Assembly (NCBI GenBank): GCA_028718905.1
Contig: JAQUKV010000004.1
Location: 19,523-83,522, forward strand
DNA: 64,000 bases
Source of the DNA: Candidatus Peribacteraceae bacterium
GTDB lineage: Bacteria; Patescibacteriota; Gracilibacteria; Peribacterales; Peribacteraceae
Direction: 5' to 3'
Under the pieces are notes generated by a model. That model ran no database searches. It saw nothing but the letters and a program-made list of their open reading frames with translations, and had not been told where the DNA came from. Positions 13,801-59,082 of the stretch are shown here, piece by piece. The translations under genes and the position numbers were made by a program. Numbering within the stretch: the stretch's first letter is position 1; the number at the start of each line of letters is the position of its first letter.

Positions 13801-13825
13801 ATCCTGTTTTCCTAGAGAAACCAAG

Positions 13826-13850
13826 AGCGCTCCGCAAGGGGCGCTTTTTT
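13826..13850 (+). terminator. rho-independent terminator
   Basis: AGCGCTCC-GCAA-GGGGCGCT hairpin (GNRA loop) followed by T6. Confidence 0.6.
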
Positions 13851-13853
13851 GGA

Positions 13854-13952
13854 GCAGTAAGCAGACCGCAGTACGCAGTAAGCGATACCACCCAATGGCC
13901 TATACAGTGCTTACCGCTTTCTGCGTACTACTGCGCCGCTGTACTGCGCTTC
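13854..13952. repeat. heptamer stutter repeat, inverted arm pair (GCAGTAA/GCAGTAC units)
   Basis: GCAGTAA GCAGACC GCAGTAC GCAGTAA GCG vs complementary arm 13905-13952, which also encodes the last residues of prfB. Confidence 0.7.
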
Positions 13953-15050
13953 AGTTCCGCATCGATGAACGACTGAATATCACCATCCAGAAACCCCGTG
14001 GTGTTGCTGGTCTCGGTATCGGTCCTGAGGTCTTTCACCATCTGGTACGGATGCAGGACGTAGCTTCGGATCTGCTGGCCGAAATCCGCGCTCTTCGAGG
14101 CACCCTTGAGCTCCGATTTTGTTTCCAGCTGTTCGCGGCGTTCCTTTTCGAGAAGTTTTGCGCGGAGCATGTTCATGGCCTGTTGCCGGTTTTGGAGTTG
14201 TGAGCGTTCGTTCTGGCATGCGACCACGATTCCGGTCGGCAGGTGCGTGATGCGGATGGCGGACTCCACCTTGTTCACGTTCTGGCCGCCCGCCCCGCCG
14301 CTCCTGTACGTATCGATCCTCAAATCCGAAGGATTGATCTCTATGCCCGTCGATTCCGGCAGCTCCGGCAACACCTCCACCAGGGCGAAGCTGGTTTGCC
14401 GCAGGTTCTTTGCGTTGAAAGGCGACAGACGCACGAGGCGGTGCGTCCCTTTCTCGCACTTCAGGTTGCCGTAGGAAAATTCGCCCTCCACGTGAATGGT
14501 GGCGGTTTTAATGCCCGCTTCCTGCCCGTCGGTCTTCTCGACGATGGTCGTCTTCCAGCGTTGTCGCTCGCAGTAGCGCAGGTACATGCGCATCAGCATC
14601 GCCGCCCAATCCTGCGCCTCGGTGCCGCCCGCTCCGCCGCTCACGGTGAGATAGCAGTTCTGCGCATCGAATTCGCCGCTCAGGTAGAGCTGCGTTTCGA
14701 GGGCGGCCCACTCCTGTGTCAGCCGTTCCACATCGGGTGCCAGCGCCTTCCGCTCTGCTTCCGTGGCCGCATTCGCCATTTCGAGCAGGGCATCAATTTC
14801 CTCCGCGATGGCCCGTACCGGTTCCCACTGTTTCTTGAGAATCTTGAGTTCGGCGAAGAGCGACTGCGCGCGCTTCTGGTCATTCCAGATATCCGCGGAG
14901 AGCGTCTGCGTTGTCAGTTCCTGAATGCGCTGGGGAATCTTTTTCGCCTCAAAGAGAGTCCTTTCCCGTGCTGATTGCGGACTTGAGGTCCCGAAGGTGC
15001 TGGAGCAGATCTTCCACGGAGAAAGGGGGGAGGAGGTACGGCGAAAGCAT
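13928..15050 (-). CDS. prfB: peptide chain release factor 2 with programmed +1 frameshift
   Basis: 33-codon leader [33 protein letters not shown] ends CTT TGA G (14954-14949) after an AGGA; +1 frame continues [10 protein letters not shown]... with SPF and GGQ motifs. Confidence 0.9.
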
Positions 15051-15087: not shown

Positions 15088-15181
15088 AAGCTATAAGACA
15101 TAAGCTGTAAGCGATAAGCGGCCAAGAAGATGCATGCGACTCGTGTTTATTGTTGCTTCTGTCTTACAGCTTATAGCTATT
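15088..15181. repeat. heptamer stutter repeat, inverted arm pair (ATAAGxx units)
   Basis: GCTATAA GACATAA GCTGTAA GCGATAA vs CTTACAGCTTATAGC arm; in divergent spacer prfB / 15261. Confidence 0.7.
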
Positions 15182-17370: not shown

Positions 17371-17447
17371 TAAGCAGTTCGTAGAACGCAGTACGCAGTA
17401 AGCTCGAGAAGTTATGCTTACTGCGTCATACGTACTGCTTACTACTG
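17371..17447. repeat. heptamer stutter repeat, inverted arm pair (CGCAGTA units)
   Basis: CGCAGTAAGC...GCTTACTGCG perfect 10-bp core, same unit family as 13854-13952. Confidence 0.7.
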
Positions 17448-19455: not shown

Positions 19456-19872
19456 CTATGACCGTGTATGCCTGCCCATGACCACGCCTTGCCAGAGGAC
19501 CAATTTCTCCCGCAGAAGCTCATACCAATTGACATACGGCAAACTAGCATCAACGTAGTCCCGTGCTCCCGCTCTCTGCGCCTGTTGACCGAGTGCCGGG
19601 GTTCCGCATGATGTCAGACAGATAATGATGCATCGACGATGGCGGTCATGCAGTGTTCTGATGACTTCGATGCCGTCATCCAGCCGTCCGTCATCCGTGA
19701 GGTGCTGATTAACGACGGCAATATCTGGAACCATCTGTTGAATGAGGGCAAATGCTTCCTGCTGATTTTTGGCGATGTGGATGTTCTCCGATACGAACCC
19801 AGCCTCCTGTGCAGCCTGAACGACGTATTCTGTCATGTCGTCGTCTTTGATGATGGCGAGCTGAAGCCCCAT
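19456..19872 (-). CDS. stand-alone response-regulator receiver domain, degenerate (pseudo-receiver)
   Basis: IIKDDD acidic pocket and CLTS Thr present, but phospho-acceptor position reads VVN (Asp to Asn) and the conserved Lys is absent. Confidence 0.65.
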   Translation of the reverse strand: MGLQLAIIKDDDMTEYVVQAAQEAGFVSENIHIAKNQQEAFALIQQMVPDIAVVNQHLTDDGRLDDGIEVIRTLHDRHRRCIIICLTSCGTPALGQQAQRAGARDYVDASLPYVNWYELLREKLVLWQGVVMGRHTRS

Positions 19873-24368: not shown

Positions 24369-25172
24369 ATGCGCATCGACATTCTTACGTTGTTTCCGGG
24401 CATGTTCACGGGTCCTCTGACCGAGAGCATTCTTGCGCGTGCGTCCACCTTCGTCCCGCAGGGCGGGACTACGGCGGACAGGCAGAACGAGAAACCGATG
24501 CAGATACATCTGCATGATCTTCGCGCATTCGGGCGCGGCAAATATCATCAGGTGGACGACTCACCGTACGGCGGCGGGGCGGGGATGGTGATGCGGGCGG
24601 ATGTGATTGTGCCGGCACTGGAGACAGTTGTTGCCGAAGGTATGGGGGGGAAGGGAGGCGTGGAAGGTCAGGAAGGACAGGAAAGTAAGGGAGGCGTGGA
24701 AGGTCAGGAAGGACAGAAAGGAAAGAAAAGAAATATAGGAAATAGAGGAGAACCGTGGAGGATCTATTTTTCACCGAGGGGCAAAAAGCTCACGCAGACG
24801 AAGGTGGAGAAACTGGCCAAGCGTGATTGGCTGGTCTTGCTCTGCGGGCATTACGAGGGGATTGATCAGCGCATCATCGACGGCGGGTGGATCGATGAGG
24901 AAATCAGCATCGGCGATTACGTGCTCACGGGCGGCGAACTTCCGGCTATGGTGCTCATTGATGCCGTCGCCCGGCAGATCCCCGGCGTGCTCGGCAAAGA
25001 TGAGTCGGCGGAAGAAGAGAGTTTCTCATCTTCCCTTGGCCGCAAGAAGGAATATCCCCACTACACGCGGCCGGAGATATTTGAGGGGCTCAAAGTGCCG
25101 GATGTGCTCCTGTCGGGGAATCATAAGGAGATTGAGAAGTGGAGGAAGGAGCGGGTAGGTGGCAAGGGATGA
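24369..25172 (+). CDS. trmD: tRNA (guanine37-N1)-methyltransferase with low-complexity insert
   Basis: MRIDILTLFPGMF, DDSPYGGGAGMVM, LLCGHYEGIDQR, ISIGDYVLTGGELPA. Confidence 0.85.
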   Translation: MRIDILTLFPGMFTGPLTESILARASTFVPQGGTTADRQNEKPMQIHLHDLRAFGRGKYHQVDDSPYGGGAGMVMRADVIVPALETVVAEGMGGKGGVEGQEGQESKGGVEGQEGQKGKKRNIGNRGEPWRIYFSPRGKKLTQTKVEKLAKRDWLVLLCGHYEGIDQRIIDGGWIDEEISIGDYVLTGGELPAMVLIDAVARQIPGVLGKDESAEEESFSSSLGRKKEYPHYTRPEIFEGLKVPDVLLSGNHKEIEKWRKERVGGKG

Positions 25173-27282: not shown

Positions 27283-28026
27283 TTGTCTTGGTGCGGATTT
27301 TCCGAAACGGAGCACGAGCAGCGGAAAGATCACCACGGCCCTCCAGATTCTGCCGATTCTGCGGGGTTCCCTCATCAGGCGCCAGAGCCATTCGAGGCCG
27401 AGGCGCTGCATCCGGATCGGGGCGCGCTGTCGTTTTCCGGCGAGAAAATCGAATGTGCCCCCGACGCCCACTGCCACGCGCACGGATGGCATTTCTTGCA
27501 GATGTTTTGCGATCCACAGGTCCTGCGCGGGGGCACCGAAGGCGACGAGGAGCAGGTGCGGGGCAGCCGCGCGAATCATTGCAAGAATCGTCGGTGCATC
27601 CTCTTCCCGCGGGCTCCCCGCAAAGCATCCGACGATTTTCAAACGCGGATTATTTTTGAGGAGCACGCTGGCCGCTGCTTCGGCAATGCCGGGTTGCGCA
27701 CCCAACAGGAACACGGGCGCTTCTTTCGTGAGTGAGGCGCATAGAGCCGTGACCGTGTCTACTCCTGTCACACGCTCAGGGAGACGCTGCCCCGTGAGCC
27801 GTGCCATCCACACGAGGCCGGTGGAGTCGGGGATATTCAAATCCGTTTCGTTCAGGAGCGCCCGGAAGTCCGCATTGTGTGCCGTCTCCATCAGCATTTC
27901 ATTGTTCGGCGTCATGATATGTCTCTGTTTTTCCTCTCGCAGAAAACCACGGATCATTTCCAGAGCTCCCGTCCGGGTGACGGCATCAATCGATACGCCG
28001 AGGAGGAAGACGCGGGATGAAGACAT
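27280..28026 (-). CDS. WecG/TagA/CpsF-family (GT26) glycosyltransferase
   Basis: IMTPNNEMLMETAHNADFRALLNETDLNIPDSTGLVW; alternative ATG 28047 lies inside the heptamer tract. Confidence 0.8.
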   Translation of the reverse strand: MSSSRVFLLGVSIDAVTRTGALEMIRGFLREEKQRHIMTPNNEMLMETAHNADFRALLNETDLNIPDSTGLVWMARLTGQRLPERVTGVDTVTALCASLTKEAPVFLLGAQPGIAEAAASVLLKNNPRLKIVGCFAGSPREEDAPTILAMIRAAAPHLLLVAFGAPAQDLWIAKHLQEMPSVRVAVGVGGTFDFLAGKRQRAPIRMQRLGLEWLWRLMREPRRIGRIWRAVVIFPLLVLRFGKSAPRQ

Positions 28027-28082
28027 AAGTTTTAAGACATAAGACATAAGCTTTAAGCTTACGGCTTATAGCTTACAGCTTC
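28019..28082. repeat. heptamer stutter repeat, inverted arm pair (TAAGACA / TAAGCTT units)
   Basis: TAAGACA TAAGACA TAAGCTT TAAGCTT ACGGCTT ATAGCTT ACAGCTT. Confidence 0.75.
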
Positions 28083-30076: not shown

Positions 30077-31426
30077 ATGAAGGAAATCATCTACCGTTCC
30101 GCTCGCTTCTTTGACGAGGTGGCCGCTCATCCCTCGAAGCACGTTCATCTGATCCTCATCGCAACCAAGCCCGACATCATCAAGCAGCTGCCGCTGTATT
30201 TCGAATTGAAAAAGCGCGGGCATCTTGTGCTCCTCGGCCACACGGGGCAGCACTACAGCGAAAACCTGAGTGGCGGCATGCTCAAGGAGTATGGCGTCGA
30301 GCCCGACTTCAACCTGAATGTACGCGGAGTGATGCACGAGATCGTGAGCCAGATCATCGGACGGCTCGGTTTTGTGATCGGAGAGCTGAAGGAGAGAGGG
30401 AAGACCGTTATCCCCTATGTGCACGGTGACACGACCACGGCCATGGCGGCGAGCAACGCGGGGTTCGCGCACGGGTGTGCCTCGGTGCATGTGGAGGCGG
30501 GTATTCGCACGCTGACGCCGAATTATAGGGATTGGGGATTGGGGATTGGGGATTGGGACGATCAGAAATGCGGAGAGTGGAGGAAATTCCTCATGGGCAG
30601 AAAAAACTGGGAGCGGGGGAGTCTGGAGCCGTATCCCGAGCAGTTCAATACGCGCTGCAGTGAGGCCGCAACCGGCGTGCATCTAGCGCCTGTGGAGTTA
30701 GATCGGGAGTTTTTGCAGAGTGAAGGGTTTCCGGACGATCGCATTTTCGTCGTGGGCAATTCCGTAGTCGATGCAGTGGAGGAGGCAAAGGGGCGCATGA
30801 AACAATCCACCGTGTTCGAGCGCTATCCGCTCCTTGCAGACGGTGACTTCGTTCGCTTCTGCATCCATCGGCGTGAGAATTGCGGATCGGATACCCGCTT
30901 CAAGTCGATCTACGATGCCATGGTCTCGCTCATCAAGGACGGCCGGAACGTGCTCCTCATCACGATGACGCAGACGGAGCGTGCATTCGAGCGGATGGGA
31001 CTGAAGAAGGATGTCGAAGCGCTCGCCAAGAAGCACAAGAACTTTCTCTACTCGCCGGTGTGGCCGGAGTATGTGGATGTGATGGCGGCCATGGCCAAAG
31101 CCGCCGTGTGCGCCACCGATTCCGGATCCATGCAGGAGGAGATGAATGCGATGGCGATTCCGTGCGTCACACTCCGCTTCGGGTCTGACCGCAGCGAGTC
31201 GGCCATGGCGGGAGGCAACCTGATCGCGCCACCCACGGATGCCCGAGCTATCAAGCAAATCATCGAGTATGCGTGGGGCAACAAGGATATGAAGAAGGCG
31301 CCGAAGCTTTATGGCAGGAATGTCAGTGCCCAGTGCATCGACGCGGTGGAGAAGGTTTTGGAGAACGGGGATGTGTTTCGAACGGAGGAGGAACGGTTGG
31401 GTAAACGAGGGGGAATGAGGAATTAA
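30077..31426 (+). CDS. UDP-N-acetylglucosamine 2-epimerase-like protein with repeat-encoded insert
   Basis: TKPDIIKQLPLY, VHGDTTTAMA, HVEAGIRT, then ~40-aa insert, then EPYPEQFNTR. Confidence 0.75.
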   Translation: MKEIIYRSARFFDEVAAHPSKHVHLILIATKPDIIKQLPLYFELKKRGHLVLLGHTGQHYSENLSGGMLKEYGVEPDFNLNVRGVMHEIVSQIIGRLGFVIGELKERGKTVIPYVHGDTTTAMAASNAGFAHGCASVHVEAGIRTLTPNYRDWGLGIGDWDDQKCGEWRKFLMGRKNWERGSLEPYPEQFNTRCSEAATGVHLAPVELDREFLQSEGFPDDRIFVVGNSVVDAVEEAKGRMKQSTVFERYPLLADGDFVRFCIHRRENCGSDTRFKSIYDAMVSLIKDGRNVLLITMTQTERAFERMGLKKDVEALAKKHKNFLYSPVWPEYVDVMAAMAKAAVCATDSGSMQEEMNAMAIPCVTLRFGSDRSESAMAGGNLIAPPTDARAIKQIIEYAWGNKDMKKAPKLYGRNVSAQCIDAVEKVLENGDVFRTEEERLGKRGGMRN

Positions 31427-31504
31427 GAATTATGAATTATGACTTAAACTAACGGGGCTGCCCATTCGTCCTTGATTCTTCATTCCAAATTCATAATTCT
31501 AAAT
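31413..31504. repeat. heptamer stutter repeat, inverted arm pair (GAATTAT units)
   Basis: GAATGAG GAATTAA GAATTAT GAATTAT GACTTAA vs complementary arm 31471-31504. Confidence 0.75.
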
Positions 31505-36621: not shown

Positions 36622-38541
36622 ATGTCGACAGAGGACCTCCTCCTGCGGCTCCAACGTGACCTGACGCCCCCGTCGGGCGCACAAGGCCGTATCCGTACCC
36701 GTTTGCAGGCGAGGATTGCCGCACCAGAGGCGTTGCGCGCAACCAAAGCGTTGCTCACCCCAACATCCGAATCGAAGCGCGTGATCTGGGAGCGCATTTC
36801 CGCTTCTCTGCTCGCTCATCGAGCGCACGGATTCCTCGTCGAACTCCGCGGGTGGTTATCGGCTCCGGAAGGGGTGCGCGCGTTTCTCTGGCAGCGTTTT
36901 TCTGCGGAGCTTGTTCCGGTGCAGCAAACCAGACACATGTTCTGGGGGGTGAAGTGGGTCGCCACGGCGGTGCTCCTTGTGTTCGTTACGCAGATGAGCC
37001 CCCGGTTCTTCTGGGCGTCCCCGTCCGCCGCGCTCTCCGAAACGATGCTCCTGCCGCATGGCGATGTTTCCATTCTCGTCGACGAAGTGTGGCAACCGGT
37101 GACGCAAGAGGTGACGCTGCGTGCGGGCATGCGCATTCAGACGGGCGAGGACGGGCAGGCAAGCATTGTGCTCAGCGATGACGGGGTCGTCCGTCTCGAT
37201 CATGGGACGATGATCGATCTTGTGGATCTTTCGGATCGCATGGAGCCCGCCTCGGAGCTGGTGCCCACTCTTTCGCTCTATACGGGCCGTCTCTGGATGC
37301 AGGGGCTCGTTCCTGCCAATCTGCGCGGGCTCACGGTCTATACCCCCGTGGGTCTCGTCACCGTGAACGGCGGCAGCGTGTCGATCGGCGGGGAGCGGGA
37401 AATGCGTGTCGCGGTCTATGACCGCACTGCGCAGGTCACCCGCAGCGGAAAGAACCTTCCTCTTGTTGCGGGAGAGTGGACCGTTCTCCGCGCAGCCGGC
37501 AATCCTTCCGCGCAGAAACTGGCCGATGGTTCCTACCAGTCCCCGTGGGTGCAGGGCAACCTCACGCTCGATGCCGTGCATCGTCAGGAGATCGCCGCGC
37601 TCCAGCAGACCCGTCTGGCCGAGCGCGCACGCATTCTGCCCACGTCCACCCTTTATCCGGTCAAGCGTGCCGTGGAGGCGGTGGATCTTTTTCTCACCAT
37701 CGGTGACGAAGCCAAGATGCAGAAGCAACTCCAGCACGCCGATACGCGCCTGACCGAGGCCGCAGCCTTGCTCGCACAGGGGCAGACTGGCGCCGTGGCT
37801 CTTCCGCTCGAGGAGTACCGGTCGACGCTCGTGGCGCTCGCAACAGGTTCCGGTGATGCGACGCTCGCCCAGTTCCTTCTGAAGAAAGTCGTGTCGCAGA
37901 ATGCGAGTGATCTTGCAGCCACGTTGCCGGGCGATCAGGCGTATGTGCTCAAGCAGGCGGTGCTTGAAACGAGCTCCACGCTTGCTGATGGCGTGAGCGC
38001 GCCCGAAGACGCCCGCGACAGCATGCTCCTCGATGCCCTGAGCGTGCTCACGCAGGCCGTCGAAACGGGCAACCTGAAAGGCCTGCCGGACATGTGGACA
38101 CAGTTGAGTCCGCAGCTGCAGATTCTGAAAGGCGGTATTGACGCACTCAAACCGGAGGTGCAGCGCGAGGCGTCGGCGGCACTGGCAATGCTTGCGCTCG
38201 CGTTCGACAAGCAGGAGGAGCAGGGCCAGATGCAGAAAGTGGATCCGATCCTGCTGCAGCAGATCAGCGCATATCTGCCGGCGGAGGAAGCCCCCATCCT
38301 GTCGGAGTCTGATATTCAATTGATTGTGGCGGGCATCCGGCAGCGTATTTTCGTCTACCACCTCACGCAGGCCCGCCTGAATCAGTTCACGCAGGAGCTC
38401 AAGCTGCTCGAGGGACATGCCGATCAGGGCAGGATTCTGCGCAGACTCTACTTCGCGCTCCCCGGCGGACCCGAGAATTTCCCCGATCGCGTGCGGCAGG
38501 AGATCATCCGTCTCGGCTGGCAGAAGGCTTCGCAATCATGA
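36622..38541 (+). CDS. membrane protein with FecR-like domain (candidate anti-sigma partner)
   Basis: Follows the sigma gene; one TM (~aa 110-130); GDVSILVDEVWQPV...LRAGMRIQTGEDGQASIVLSDDGVVRLDHGT FecR-like strand pattern. Confidence 0.5.
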   Translation: MSTEDLLLRLQRDLTPPSGAQGRIRTRLQARIAAPEALRATKALLTPTSESKRVIWERISASLLAHRAHGFLVELRGWLSAPEGVRAFLWQRFSAELVPVQQTRHMFWGVKWVATAVLLVFVTQMSPRFFWASPSAALSETMLLPHGDVSILVDEVWQPVTQEVTLRAGMRIQTGEDGQASIVLSDDGVVRLDHGTMIDLVDLSDRMEPASELVPTLSLYTGRLWMQGLVPANLRGLTVYTPVGLVTVNGGSVSIGGEREMRVAVYDRTAQVTRSGKNLPLVAGEWTVLRAAGNPSAQKLADGSYQSPWVQGNLTLDAVHRQEIAALQQTRLAERARILPTSTLYPVKRAVEAVDLFLTIGDEAKMQKQLQHADTRLTEAAALLAQGQTGAVALPLEEYRSTLVALATGSGDATLAQFLLKKVVSQNASDLAATLPGDQAYVLKQAVLETSSTLADGVSAPEDARDSMLLDALSVLTQAVETGNLKGLPDMWTQLSPQLQILKGGIDALKPEVQREASAALAMLALAFDKQEEQGQMQKVDPILLQQISAYLPAEEAPILSESDIQLIVAGIRQRIFVYHLTQARLNQFTQELKLLEGHADQGRILRRLYFALPGGPENFPDRVRQEIIRLGWQKASQS

Positions 38542-38617
38542 GGGATTGGGGATTGGTCTATTAGGGATTAGGGCTGTTTTTTTGTATCCCAATTCCCAAT
38601 AACTAATCCCTCATCCC
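38541..38617. repeat. heptamer stutter repeat, inverted arm pair (GGGATTx units)
   Basis: GAGGGAT TGGGGAT TGGTCTA TTAGGGA TTAGGGC - T-run - CCCAATTCCCAATAACTAATCCCTCATCCC. Confidence 0.75.
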
Positions 38618-38661
38618 TTTTCTTGCCCTCTGGTGATACAAAAGGCACACTTCCCCTCGAT

Positions 38662-43122: not shown

Positions 43123-43177
43123 GTAGGATTAGGGCGTAGGATTAGGGCGTAGGGTTAGGGTGTAGGGCGCAGGGATT
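43123..43177. repeat. G/T/A stutter repeat (TAGGATTAGGGCG units), single arm
   Basis: TAGGATTAGGGCG TAGGATTAGGGCG TAGGGTTAGGGTG TAGGGCGCAGGGATT directly upstream of def start. Confidence 0.7.
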
Positions 43178-43816: not shown

Positions 43817-43878
43817 GGGAGCCGACTATACCCGAACGGAGGATGGGAGCGAGGGAGTGGGCTTGACGGAGAAGTCGT

Positions 43879-43906
43879 GAGTTTTGAGTTATGAGTTTTG
43901 AGTATT
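43879..43906. repeat. heptamer stutter repeat (GAGTTTT units)
   Basis: GAGTTTT GAGTTAT GAGTTTT GAGTATT, overlaps the annotated nth start. Confidence 0.65.
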
Positions 43907-44577: not shown

Positions 44578-44828
44578 CTTTCTTCTTTCTCTGTCTGCCC
44601 GACAGAGAAAGAAGCAAAGAGAGCGCACCGCGCGCCAATCCCCCTCCACCCGGCCCTGTGCCTCCTCGCCACGCCTCCAAGGCTTCGGCTCGTCTCGTCG
44701 GCGCTCCCCGCTTTCGCGGGGCAGGGCCTTCCCCTTCACCCCCAGTGGCGCGCGGAGCCTCCAACATAGACTGTTTGCTGTTTTCTGTTTGTGTTTTTTG
44801 TATTGGTGAGTTGTTTGTTGTTTTTTTA
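44578..44828 (+). repeat. structured intergenic repeat family, copy R4
   Basis: 14-bp hairpin 44582-44614 (CTTCTTTCTCTGTC/GACAGAGAAAGAAG), CCGCGCGCCA/TGGCGCGCGG closing helix, CCCCGC-TTTC-GCGGGG, CCCCTTCACCCCC, long T/G tail. Confidence 0.75.
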
Positions 44829-44851: not shown

Positions 44852-45598
44852 ATGGCGGCCGATCTGCTCCATATCCTGCGTTCCATCGGTTTAGATGAGA
44901 AGGAATCTGCGCTCTACCTTGCTGGTCTCTCACTCGGATCCGCGCCCGCTTCGTCGTATTCCAAAGCCGCGAAACTCAATCGTATCACCGCGTACAACAC
45001 GCTGGAGGGGCTGGCGCGGCGGGGTCTTCTCACCGTTTCGCGCAAGGTGCGTGCCAAGTGGTACCAGCCGGTGCCGCCGGAGCATCTGGCCATCGAGGCG
45101 CGCAAGAGTGCCGATGCCCTGCAGCGTGTCCTTCCGGAACTGCGCAGTCTTCAGGGCAAGGACCATCGGCGTCCGGTGATCCGGTTCTTCGAAGGCTGGG
45201 AAGGCGTGCGGCGCGTCTACGAAGACACCCTTACCGCCCGCAGCGAGCTTCTGAACTTTGCCAACTCCGCCGTGGTCCGGCATTTCTGGCCACACTATGA
45301 CGAGGAATACGTCACCGAGCGCGTGCGTCGCAGAATACGACTTCGGGGGATCGCCCCTGATGATGAGGCGGGCCGCAAAGTGCATGGAGAAGACCGCAAG
45401 CGCCTCCGCGAAATCCGACTCGTCCCTTCCAAAGATTTCGACTTTCGAAACGAAATCAACATTTACGATCACAAGGTGGCGATTTGCTCATTCGGCTCTG
45501 CCGATCACGTGTTCGGCGTGATTATCGAAAGCGTCGAAGTGGCCGAGACGCAACGGCAGATCTTCGAAATGGCGTGGCGGTATGCAAAGAGTTTGTAG
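44852..45598 (+). CDS. TrmB-family transcriptional regulator
   Basis: LGLDEKESALYLAGLSLGSAPASSYSKAAKLNRITAYNTLEGLARRGLL winged-helix N-terminus. Confidence 0.7.
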   Translation: MAADLLHILRSIGLDEKESALYLAGLSLGSAPASSYSKAAKLNRITAYNTLEGLARRGLLTVSRKVRAKWYQPVPPEHLAIEARKSADALQRVLPELRSLQGKDHRRPVIRFFEGWEGVRRVYEDTLTARSELLNFANSAVVRHFWPHYDEEYVTERVRRRIRLRGIAPDDEAGRKVHGEDRKRLREIRLVPSKDFDFRNEINIYDHKVAICSFGSADHVFGVIIESVEVAETQRQIFEMAWRYAKSL

Positions 45599-45616
45599 CT
45601 GGTAGCTTGTAGCTGG
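45595..45616. repeat. heptamer stutter repeat (GTAGCTG units)
   Basis: GTAGCTG GTAGCTT GTAGCTG G, first unit supplies the TAG stop of the TrmB-like gene. Confidence 0.6.
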
Positions 45617-45655
45617 CTTGCCCTGAGCCAGGTCGAACGGGTAGTTTAGTTACCC

Positions 45656-56292: not shown

Positions 56293-56356
56293 TTAGGGAT
56301 TGGGGATTGGAATATTAGGGATTGGGGGGGGTAGGGTGTTGGGCGTAGGGCGTAGG
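56293..56356. repeat. G/T/A stutter repeat (GGGATTG / TAGGGCG units), single arm
   Basis: TTAGGGATTGGGGATTGG...GGGCGTAGGGCGTAGG fills the whole spacer between secD start and the upstream gene stop. Confidence 0.7.
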
Positions 56357-57063: not shown

Positions 57064-58020
57064 CTATTTTCTTTCGAGCGTTGTGCCTTCTCGCAGCATC
57101 TGCCGCGAGAGGTCAATGCCCTTCAGTGTGCAATGATCATCCAGGATGCAATCCGTCAGGACACAGTTCTCCACGGTGCAGTGTTCGAACAGAATGACAT
57201 TGCGAAGAACGGAATGGCGGATGACCGAGTGATTGCCCAGCACCACAGATCCCTCTGCCTCCGTTTCCGTGCATGCCGCCTTATGACCCAGCAGTACATG
57301 GTCGCCCACGAGCGAGCGTGTCGCTTCCAGATAGGATTCGAAGGACCCGATGTCGAACCACGGCTCCGTGAATGCACGGAATTCCACCGCGATAGAGCGG
57401 CGCAGGAACTCCTCGAAAATTCCGCCGACGTTATCGGGCTTCGACTGCGCATATTCCACGACAAGCGGAAGATGGGCAGCCGGCAGAATCGTCATCCCCG
57501 TGCTCACGAGTGAGCTGTTCGGCTGGGCGGGCTTTTCTTCGAATGCCGCGACATGCCGCCCGTCCGGCAGGGGAACGACGGTTCCGAATCCCTGTGCACG
57601 CCTGAGATCCCTGATGTCGTGAGCCGCGAGGAGCGGCGTTCCGGGCGTGTACTGCGTGAGGAACTGTGCCATCGGAAAGCCGAAATAATTATCGCCTGTG
57701 AGCAGAAGGATATCTTCGGTGATGTGATCGCGGGTGATCCACTGGGCGACGGCACCGAGCGCACCGAGCTTCTCGGTATCCTTGTGCGTCTGCTCCACCA
57801 GAATCCCGGCCCGGGAGTGATTGCCCTGTGCTTTCCACTGCGTAAAGCTCCGCTCGAATGCGGCGTTGATGCTCACCGTCACGGGCAGATCCGCGGGCAG
57901 TTGCTCCAGCAGGTGATCAATGAGCGGTTTGCCTGCGAGCGGAAGGAGCGGCTTGGCGCGCTTTTCCGTGAGCGGCCAGAGTCTGGTGGCAAAGCCGCCG
58001 GCTAAGATGAAGGCATACAC
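57064..58020 (-). CDS. sugar-phosphate nucleotidyltransferase with C-terminal left-handed beta-helix
   Basis: MYAFILAGGFATRLWPLTEKRAKPLLPLAGKPLIDH. Confidence 0.8.
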   Translation of the reverse strand: MYAFILAGGFATRLWPLTEKRAKPLLPLAGKPLIDHLLEQLPADLPVTVSINAAFERSFTQWKAQGNHSRAGILVEQTHKDTEKLGALGAVAQWITRDHITEDILLLTGDNYFGFPMAQFLTQYTPGTPLLAAHDIRDLRRAQGFGTVVPLPDGRHVAAFEEKPAQPNSSLVSTGMTILPAAHLPLVVEYAQSKPDNVGGIFEEFLRRSIAVEFRAFTEPWFDIGSFESYLEATRSLVGDHVLLGHKAACTETEAEGSVVLGNHSVIRHSVLRNVILFEHCTVENCVLTDCILDDHCTLKGIDLSRQMLREGTTLERK

Positions 58021-58048
58021 GGCGACAGCATACTGGAGTGGTTGAAAG

Positions 58049-58183
58049 TTAGGGAACTAGGGAACTTGGGAAATAGGGAAATAAGGAACTTGGGAAATAG
58101 GGAACGAGACATTTCTCATGTCATTCTCAGCATTCCCTCCCATTTCTCTCCTTCCCGAGTCCCCGATTTCCCTCGTTCCCTAT
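58049..58183. repeat. 7-9-nt stutter repeat, long inverted arm pair (GGGAACT/GGGAAAT units)
   Basis: arm 58049-58108 purine-rich, arm 58131-58183 complementary pyrimidine-rich; abuts stop codon at 58186. Confidence 0.75.
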
Positions 58184-58185
58184 GC

Positions 58186-58998: not shown

Positions 58999-59005
58999 GG
59001 GTGAG

Positions 59006-59073
59006 GCTTAAGACTTAAGACAAAAGCTATAAGACATAAGCTTACAGTTTACAGTTTACAGTTTACAGCTTCG
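59006..59073. repeat. heptamer stutter repeat, inverted arm pair (CTTAAGA / TTTACAG units)
   Basis: CTTAAGA CTTAAGA CAAAAGC TATAAGA CATAAGC then TTACAGT x3. Confidence 0.75.
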
Positions 59074-59082
59074 TCTTTCATC

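Follow-up and report, generated by a model that had tools for sequence, protein, structure and literature searches.

Bacteria have been known since about 1990 to contain tandem repeats with a 7-nt unit, the short tandemly repeated repetitive (STRR) sequences; the units reported in that year by Mazel et al. are said to be CCCCAGT, TTGGTCA and CAACAGT, and an over-representation of heptamers was reportedly shown in 2007. To our knowledge these repeats have no accepted origin or function. The S23p family of proteins (PF05635, '23S rRNA IVS protein'), whose structure has been solved since 2006, likewise has no function that we know of, and for 30 years the rRNA intervening sequences (IVS) have been described as relics of some unknown mobile element. 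Here we describe an array-armed hairpin at positions 58049–58183 of a 64,000-nt stretch of DNA (the window; positions 19523–83522 of contig C4) from an uncultured groundwater relative of Peribacter, a member of the candidate phyla radiation (CPR) with an assembly of 1.42 Mb in 28 contigs and 57% GC. Its GMP synthase shares 89% identity with the enzyme of a Candidatus Peribacter metagenome-assembled genome, and every close match of this protein falls within Peribacteria/Peregrinibacteria. We put a probability of about 0.62 on the reading that the 7–8-nt arrays of this genome are the stems of small hairpin cassettes carrying a PF05635 gene, the focal hairpin and most others in the window being gene-less members.

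The closest described arrays are those of Xanthomonas, where GGGAATC repeats are 89–93% intergenic and form 70–75 convergent inverted pairs per genome, and of Nostoc, where the unit is GGGGA(C/T)T; the same study noted a general excess of heptamers and quoted the polymerase-slippage hypothesis of Mrazek 2007 (Rehm et al. 2015, PMC4692102). Like these, the arrays described here are tandem, typically with 2–6 units, lie between genes near the ends of open reading frames (ORFs), often form convergent inverted pairs, and vary in length and sequence between close species; two of the published units, GGGGATT and GGGAATC, are found among the arrays of our genome and its sisters. Unlike them, they have no single G-rich consensus but fall into several unrelated unit families (GCAGTAM, RTAAGNN, GGGNNTA, GAATTAT and others), and their host is a 1.4-Mb CPR bacterium. 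The TAACTGA heptamers of Beggiatoaceae, Cyanobacteria and Bacteroidetes were described as 169 direct and 1 indirect (MacGregor 2015, PMC4679880). Like STRR and TAACTGA repeats, our arrays are tandem heptamers found between genes, often directly next to a start codon, and have a patchy phylogenetic distribution; their unit sequences are different, and inverted pairs are frequent here whereas TAACTGA sets are nearly all direct. From these descriptions, heptamer arrays paired into hairpins were already known as a type of repeat, though one without an explanation. The pairing is therefore not the departure from known repeats that a first-pass annotation of the window took it to be, since the Xanthomonas genomes already have it. 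The analogy drawn there with cyanobacterial STRR repeats is fair as a comparison of how the repeats work, but membership was rejected: the host is a Peribacter relative, and none of the top 40 canonical units is an STRR unit.

The second point of comparison is the IVS. In Coxiella, the 23S rRNA IVS has an S23p ORF and a terminal stem that is cut by RNase III, with strain-variable GACAGAT heptamers at the cut site; in one strain the ORF has lost an internal part (Warrier et al. 2016, PMC4990558). The cassettes described below resemble the S23p IVS of Coxiella, Leptospira and Brucella (PMC4990558) in that terminal inverted repeats form a long stem with a PF05635 ORF in its loop, co-oriented with the host transcript, that tandem heptamers of strain-variable copy number lie in the stem beside the ORF, and that the ORF decays by internal deletion. 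They differ in lying between protein genes rather than in helix 25 or 45 of 23S rRNA, in having both arms built of 3–7 repeat units, and in that gene-less copies far outnumber gene-bearing ones. Repetitive extragenic palindromes and bacterial interspersed mosaic elements (REP/BIME) and MITEs (miniature inverted-repeat transposable elements) are also intergenic hairpins, often within operons, whose non-autonomous copies outnumber those with a gene. Unlike those, the elements here have no conserved sequence, their tandem arms are lineage-specific, their loops are unrelated, and in place of a Y1 transposase the protein is a four-helix bundle. We accordingly rejected both REP/BIME and a single MITE-like GCAGTAM family, as the loops are mostly unrelated and the arm units differ between loci.

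Arrays were detected with Tandem Repeats Finder (TRF), an independent lag-based tract finder and the recurrence of 5-mers by lag, with a locally shuffled genome as the control. Period 7 was the commonest non-coding period, with 195 TRF rows genome-wide, 120 of which lay in the ∼23% of the genome left intergenic by our crude codon-usage gene caller (statistics by spacer class are therefore approximate). The shuffled genome gave 42 period-7 rows in total, so that ∼10 would be expected in intergenic DNA; intergenic period-7 arrays were ∼12-fold enriched across the genome. At lag 7 the tract finder returned 116 tracts, compared with 47 at lag 8 and 7–20 at lags 4, 5, 10, 11 and 13. Recurrence of 5-mers at lag 7 reached 4.2 per kb in intergenic DNA against 1.7 per kb in coding DNA, the maxima at lags 7 and 14 were restricted to intergenic DNA, and many of the tracts scored as genic were located at ORF ends. 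With 7-nt units over-represented and strongly biased to non-coding DNA, the arrays are heptameric simple-sequence repeats in the sense of Mrazek 2007 and Rehm 2015. Every large contig carries such arrays, as do many relatives, whose intergenic DNA is likewise enriched in them. Both the preference for 7 nt and the spread beyond the window that the first-pass annotation had predicted were thus borne out.

A partner arm was scored where a complementary arm lay no more than 110 nt away with z < −3. On this basis 31% of lag-7 tracts were paired, compared with 4% of random intergenic controls, and GCAGTAM arrays were paired in 58% of cases, the G-rich GGGNNTA arrays in 12%. These two superfamilies, the second comprising GGGCGTA, GGGGGTA, GGGATTA and GGGGATT, make up about two thirds of all tracts. 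The claim that most arrays have a complementary arm therefore holds in the window, where about 8 of 12 are paired, but not genome-wide. Similarly, the units do differ between loci but are not free-form, and the ATAAGxx and GCAGTAA units, which had been listed separately, are phase-shifted relatives (RTAAGNN). Arrays affect about a quarter of the window's spacers, not nearly every one. In an Rfam scan of the window a tRNA was the sole match, with no known RNA family at the arrays.

The focal hairpin occupies a spacer (58021–58185) between two minus-strand genes whose order is kept in relatives. The upstream gene encodes a CoA_binding_3 domain protein (PF13727; 58186–58998), with its stop codon 3 nt from the hairpin, and the downstream gene a sugar-phosphate nucleotidyltransferase (PF00483, E = 5e-31; 57064–58020). 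The left arm (58050–58105) consists of seven units of 8 nt (TAGGGAAC, with the variants TTGGGAAA and TAGGGAAA), not of the 7-nt GGGAACT first annotated; TRF reports TAGGGAAC x7 with period 8/24, 7.0 copies and a score of 70, and the units form direct-repeat family D1 with a spacing of 8. The loop (58106–58138) holds a small inner stem (ACATTTCTCATGT), and the right arm (58139–58183) is made of degenerate complementary units of 8–9 nt containing TTCCC (inverted repeats I1–I8, 73–100% complementary). Together these give a 134-nt imperfect hairpin with ∼55 imperfect pairs and a minimum free energy of −61.0 kcal/mol for the plus strand and −59.8 kcal/mol for the minus strand (z ∼ −3.5).

In related genomes the same spacer holds hairpins of other sequence. 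The arms are GGGAACN 8-mers in G002 and G007, GGGATTA 7-mers in G008, GCAGTAM in G003 and G005, and GAATGGC, GGTTCAGT or GTCCART in other genera and one other family; in G001 and G006 the spacer is short and without an array. The focal unit class is also the arm class of a PF05635 cassette on contig C1 of the same genome and of cassettes in G005 and G007. By architecture and unit class the focal hairpin would be a gene-less member of the cassettes, and may have descended from a cassette of a GGGAAC-armed lineage. Two relatives have a different kind of insert in this spacer (L083 in G005 and L092 in G011), ∼750 nt long with an unknown ORF of ∼200 residues. On its flanks the 3′ end of the upstream CoA_binding_3 gene is directly duplicated (a perfect 33 nt in L092), and the insert has the look of an element that, on inserting, rebuilds the end of the gene it hits. 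These inserts were rejected as PF05635 cassettes because their ORFs are unrelated.

PF05635 gave seven matches in this genome and 0–24 in relatives. A complete cassette carries in its loop a gene for a four-helix-bundle protein of ∼120 residues (PF05635), which we take to be a relative of the Avd protein of diversity-generating retroelements (DGRs). All six of the genome's own PF05635 genes that do not adjoin a reverse transcriptase (RT) gene have an array on the left and a complementary one on the right. The arm units are different in each (TTAGCTN, GCAGTAM, purine 9-mers, GGGATTN, TAGGGAAG and GTTTACN), the TAGGGAAG 8-mers of the C1 cassette being of the focal class. The arrays abut the stop and start codons of the neighbouring genes, with the arms beginning at the upstream stop (e.g. 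TAG followed directly by GGCGTAGG). The sites lie between protein genes, namely between ComM and PyrF, between UmuD-like and Y-family polymerase genes, between S18 and YebC, and after YchF; none is in a 23S rRNA helix, in an assembly that is without a large-subunit rRNA. A PF05635 ORF enclosed by terminal inverted repeats, as in an IVS, is therefore present in all six of these cassettes and in 26 of 35 across the clade, and is absent from the focal hairpin. The cassette at C5:109825–110273 separates the UmuD/LexA-like peptidase gene from the Y-family DNA polymerase gene, normally a two-gene operon.

To compare the flanks of PF05635 genes with those of other genes, we counted the complementary 6-mers shared by the two flanks of each gene, as two earlier metrics (RNAduplex on 130-nt flanks and a harsh local alignment) were too blunt. 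The median was 18 for 35 unique PF05635 genes from this genome and its relatives and 4 for 850 control genes. Of the PF05635 genes, 26 exceeded the 95th percentile of the controls and 21 the 99th (p = 5e-18).

The genome has three RT genes (C8:31437–32060, C13:17186–17872 and C3:73209–73814), each with a weak Avd-like (PF05635-like) ORF nearby (C8:29580, C13:16172 and C3:70560, respectively). These three loci are probably DGRs and distinct from the hairpin cassettes: the six cassette genes are not near the RT genes, and only the seventh, weaker PF05635 match (C13:16172) is. The cassettes themselves were rejected as DGRs, as they lack the arrangement of an Avd-like gene adjoining an RT. An origin of the arrays through reverse transcription, by analogy with Avd and DGRs or with rolling-circle RTs, was also rejected, given that the array-rich genomes G018, G010, G027, G038 and G007 are without RT.

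Orthologous sites in sister genomes showed how cassettes come and go. Between ComM and PyrF, a PF05635 cassette is present in our genome and in G001, G005, G006 and G007 of the same genus. At this site G004, which has no PF05635 gene, has a 152-nt gene-less hairpin that corresponds to the G006 cassette minus ∼308 internal nt; the two are 89% identical over 151 nt, the hairpin retaining the two arms as well as the final ∼75 nt of the gene. Judged by this alignment, the G004 hairpin is a cassette that lost its gene by internal deletion. G011 has a gene-less periodic hairpin of 69 nt at the site and G012 an empty spacer of 28 nt. In G001 the arms of this cassette (L202) are (TTAGGG)n and (CCCTAA)n hexamers, a unit identical to the vertebrate telomere repeat.

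Between S18 and YebC, our genome and G001 have GTTTACN-armed cassettes whose proteins are 73% identical. G008 has a GAGTTNT-armed cassette at the same place with a protein only 28% identical, although its YebC is 97% identical, and the spacer is empty (41 nt) in G007. The six PF05635 copies of our genome are likewise only 21–36% identical to one another, and in the protein tree arm class follows protein clade. As read from these alignments, arms and protein thus pass down together, in lineages of their own, and one spacer can house unrelated lineages in sister genomes. Therefore, arms and gene behave as one unit, the cassette, which can be gained, can be lost and can decay. The causal direction between gene and arms is established at one locus only. 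In G005 (L214) the S18–YebC spacer has a 482-nt insert with a 109-residue ORF that is not PF05635 and an (AGTATTC)n array at its end; periodic arms may accompany cargo other than PF05635.

The two features also vary together between genomes. In a sample of 25 genomes (the whole of our own and 35–100 kb from each of 24 relatives), PF05635 copies per Mb correlated (Spearman 0.73, p = 3.5e-5) with the density of lag-7 tracts, counted only where the nearest PF05635 gene was >400 nt away. The median was 1.1 tracts per 100 kb in the 10 zero-copy genomes, which belong to several genera of one family, and 10 in the 15 gene-bearing genomes (p = 2e-4). GC content was uncorrelated with tract density.

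The association is also visible in a cultivable organism. One of the PF05635 proteins of our genome matches PDB 2GSC (E = 6.7e-15), which is XCC0516 of Xanthomonas campestris, and the supplementary table of Rehm et al. (PMC4692102) places a GGGAATC array over the XCC0516 start codon. That PF05635 gene thus abuts a heptamer array as ours do, a matching case that went unremarked in the published Xanthomonas tables; Rehm et al. (PMC4692102) drew no link between heptamer repeats and PF05635 genes.

Several observations weigh against the cassette reading. At the focal locus, the 33-nt loop holds no gene, contig C4 yielded no fragment of PF05635 in a six-frame search with hidden Markov models (HMMs), and a PF05635 gene was absent from this spacer in every relative examined; its membership therefore rests on architecture and unit class, and its link to the cassettes is by analogy. 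The genome has ∼27 GCAGTAM hairpins and a single GCAGTAM-armed gene, and the loops, 4–101 nt long, are heterogeneous and for the most part unrelated, only two or three pairs being nearly identical, so that most gene-less hairpins could have arisen without a gene. In a six-frame HMM search of the whole genome, no gene remnants were found in hairpin loops beyond the seven genes and two faint Avd-like matches near RTs. The single-armed G-rich arrays and an array lying in frame within a gene fit poorly with a simple description as stems. Cassette genes are co-oriented with their neighbours in 25 of 33 cases upstream and 28 of 33 downstream, only a slight excess over the genome baseline of ∼62%. 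The co-occurrence statistic ignores kinship, fragmented assemblies may have lost repeat-flanked genes, and the zero-copy genomes G004, G026 and G036 still hold 4–6 tracts per 100 kb. Finally, folding was equal on both strands (the sense strand was the more stable in 6 of 16 hairpins and 17 of 35 cassettes), so that there is no positive sign of selection as RNA.

The likeliest alternative is that the arrays are ordinary products of slippage: the replication machinery would favour 7-nt slippage, arrays would arise anywhere in non-coding DNA, and PF05635 genes would be passengers that land or survive in hairpins. We regard this as unlikely, although slippage itself is supported. In the variable surface loop of UDP-N-acetylglucosamine 2-epimerase, our genome has (GGGATTG)x4.3 in frame (30528–30557, plus strand; TRF 100% match, gene identified with Pfam), encoding WGLGIGDW, an array within a gene that the first-pass annotation had not listed. 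The same loop has (GGGCGTA)x3 in G001, G004 and G005, GGGAACTN 8-mers in G002, (GGGAATC)x3 in G007, (TCGAATAC)x4 in G008, a degenerate tract in G006 and a short loop without an array in G003 (L232–L239); its total length is mostly 57 nt despite the differing units. Here and in the focal spacer, arrays are uniform within a locus and divergent between species and have therefore undergone concerted evolution, which at two orthologous sites supports the ongoing, active slippage that had been proposed for the window.

Such concerted evolution where the site stays the same, one example being a coding loop that has neither a partner arm nor a PF05635 gene nearby, speaks for slippage alone, as do the excess of gene-less hairpins with unrelated loops, the arrays in genomes without PF05635, and the heptamer excess known from many phyla (PMC4692102). 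However, the close relatives G009, G015, G033 and G021, which have the same replication machinery and a similar GC content and are without PF05635, have 0–1 arrays per 100 kb. Strongly complementary flanks are found in 74% of PF05635 genes compared with 4% of controls, arms follow the protein lineage, and the gene-less hairpin of G004 is a deleted cassette. If the arrays are cassette stems, replication slippage, possibly together with conversion between the two arms, would continually remodel the arms and so produce the diversity of units.

A second alternative concerns the single-armed G-rich arrays (GGGCGTA, GGGATTG and the like), which would be G-quadruplex elements like those of Xanthomonas and Nostoc and separate from the hairpins. 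GGGGATT is the Nostoc unit, and units of this type were shown to form G-quadruplexes in vitro by Rehm et al. (PMC4692102). Arrays with at least four G-runs are common, and those at 30528, 43123 and 56293, each with four or more G3 runs, have the sequence needed for a potential quadruplex; partner arms are found, as noted, for few G-rich arrays. Yet G-rich units also build the paired arms of PF05635 cassettes (C1 and C7 of our genome, and G006), the single-armed arrays show no fixed orientation to transcription (6 antisense and 5 sense), and a half-decayed cassette would likewise leave one arm. We think a separate quadruplex class rather doubtful.

The third alternative, that these are structural elements selected by the host (terminators or attenuators, REP-like stabilisers of mRNA 3′ ends, or sites for nucleoid or RNA-binding proteins), would account for the share of paired tracts in convergent (71%), co-directional (38–46%) and divergent (12%) spacers and for the persistence of a hairpin at the focal spacer of several species despite its replaced sequence, but is improbable, as sister genomes do without the hairpin (at the focal site in G001 and G006, and at two cassette sites in G007 and G012), the sense strand has no folding advantage, and a protein would find no conserved sequence to recognise. 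Tract counts per kb were alike in divergent and tandem spacers, as far as the crude gene calls allow. The suggestion that the hairpins act as terminators was not supported either: no T-run or terminator-like call was found in the spacer 58021–58185, and a separate canonical terminator (13823–13848) adjoins another hairpin of the window (13849–13954).

Selection on the stems purely as RNA is unsupported, as there is no sense/antisense asymmetry in folding energy; Watson–Crick complementarity of the arms could be maintained at the DNA level instead. Under the cassette reading, the elements would be transcribed together with host operons, and RNase III would then cut the long stem, as in the rRNA IVS, making the insert little harmful. 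Our guess is that such processing of read-through transcripts is the most economical functional proposal, because of the Coxiella precedent (an S23p ORF, a cleaved stem, GACAGAT heptamers and ORF decay). Our genome encodes an RNase III.

The cassette reading gives the main point that the first-pass annotation missed, that the arrays are the arms of PF05635 cassettes and their gene-less derivatives. It ties heptamer repeats, the PF05635/S23p family and rRNA IVS into one testable picture, resting on presence/absence polymorphism in sister genomes, one deletion derivative and quantitative co-occurrence. A testable origin is thereby offered for the long-unexplained bacterial excess of 7-base repeats, for example in the cultivable Xanthomonas, Nostoc and Coxiella. 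A broader and more tentative possibility is that PF05635 proteins are the active component of a widespread class of hairpin cassettes, each lineage recognising, maintaining or propagating its own arms, possibly in trans on gene-less hairpins; one such system might also explain the heptamer excess (STRR, GGGAATC, TAACTGA), the origin of rRNA IVS and the ancestry of the DGR Avd protein. For annotation, the arrays matter because they supply stop codons, lengthen or shorten ORF calls and can lie in frame in housekeeping enzymes.

TRF confirmed an array at every site listed for the window. Two GCAGTAM-armed hairpins lie at 13849–13954 (C4:33390–33453; TRF array at 13854), where the element is gene-less and overlaps the 3′ end of a release-factor gene (13928–14779, minus strand), and at 17371–17441 (C4:36910–36967; TRF array at 17374), directly after the stop codon of infC (IF-3). 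The RTAAGNN-armed hairpin at 15100–15174 (ATAAGAC, ATAAGCT and GTAAGCG units; TRF period 7/14, array at 15088), the part-paired TAAGACA and AGCTTAC arrays at 28019–28082 (TRF rows 28020–28050 and 28056–28081) and the imperfect hairpin of TAAGACN and TTACAGT arrays at 58999–59076 (TRF arrays at 59007 and 59042) were each found by both TRF and folding. So were the GAATTAT-armed hairpin at 31412–31486 (C4:50934; TRF array at 31420, partner arm z = −4.5), the GGGATTR-armed hairpin at 38540–38619 (TRF array at 38542), which occupies the spacer ahead of efp, and the GTAGCTG array at 45595–45653 (TRF array at 45595), with a weak partner arm. As had been annotated, arrays overlap stop codons: the TAA at 31424–31426 lies within a GGAATTA unit and the TAG at 45596–45598 within the first GTAGCTG unit.

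The remaining arrays are single-armed and on the plus strand. That at 43123–43177 is G-rich (GGATTAGGGCGTA), potentially quadruplex-forming, and shows no partner arm on folding (TRF period 13/7, arrays at 43123 and 43130). The GAGTTTT array at 43878–43906 (TRF array at 43878) is of the unit class that forms the arms of the G008 S18–YebC cassette (L213). The third (56293–56356; C4:75849; TRF arrays at 56296 and 56327) is G-rich, with GGGATTG followed by GGGCGTA units, and takes up the whole 64-nt spacer after secD.

Other repeats were seen in passing. A T/G-rich period-7 tract (CTGTTTG) at 44771–44823 of the window is the tail of another repeat element named in the first-pass annotation, and a tandem repeat of period 9/18/36 (AAGGAAGGCGTGGAAGGT...) at 24651–24749, within the ORF 24369–25172, is probably a coding repeat. 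Elsewhere in the assembly, a 61-nt poly-G run at C12:17983–18043 and a poly-C run at a contig end (C16:1–21) may be assembly or sequencing artefacts. The minus-strand gene at 53860–56292 of the window encodes an 810-residue SecD/SecF-type protein in which, according to Pfam, a parvulin-type peptidyl-prolyl isomerase domain is inserted in the periplasmic region.

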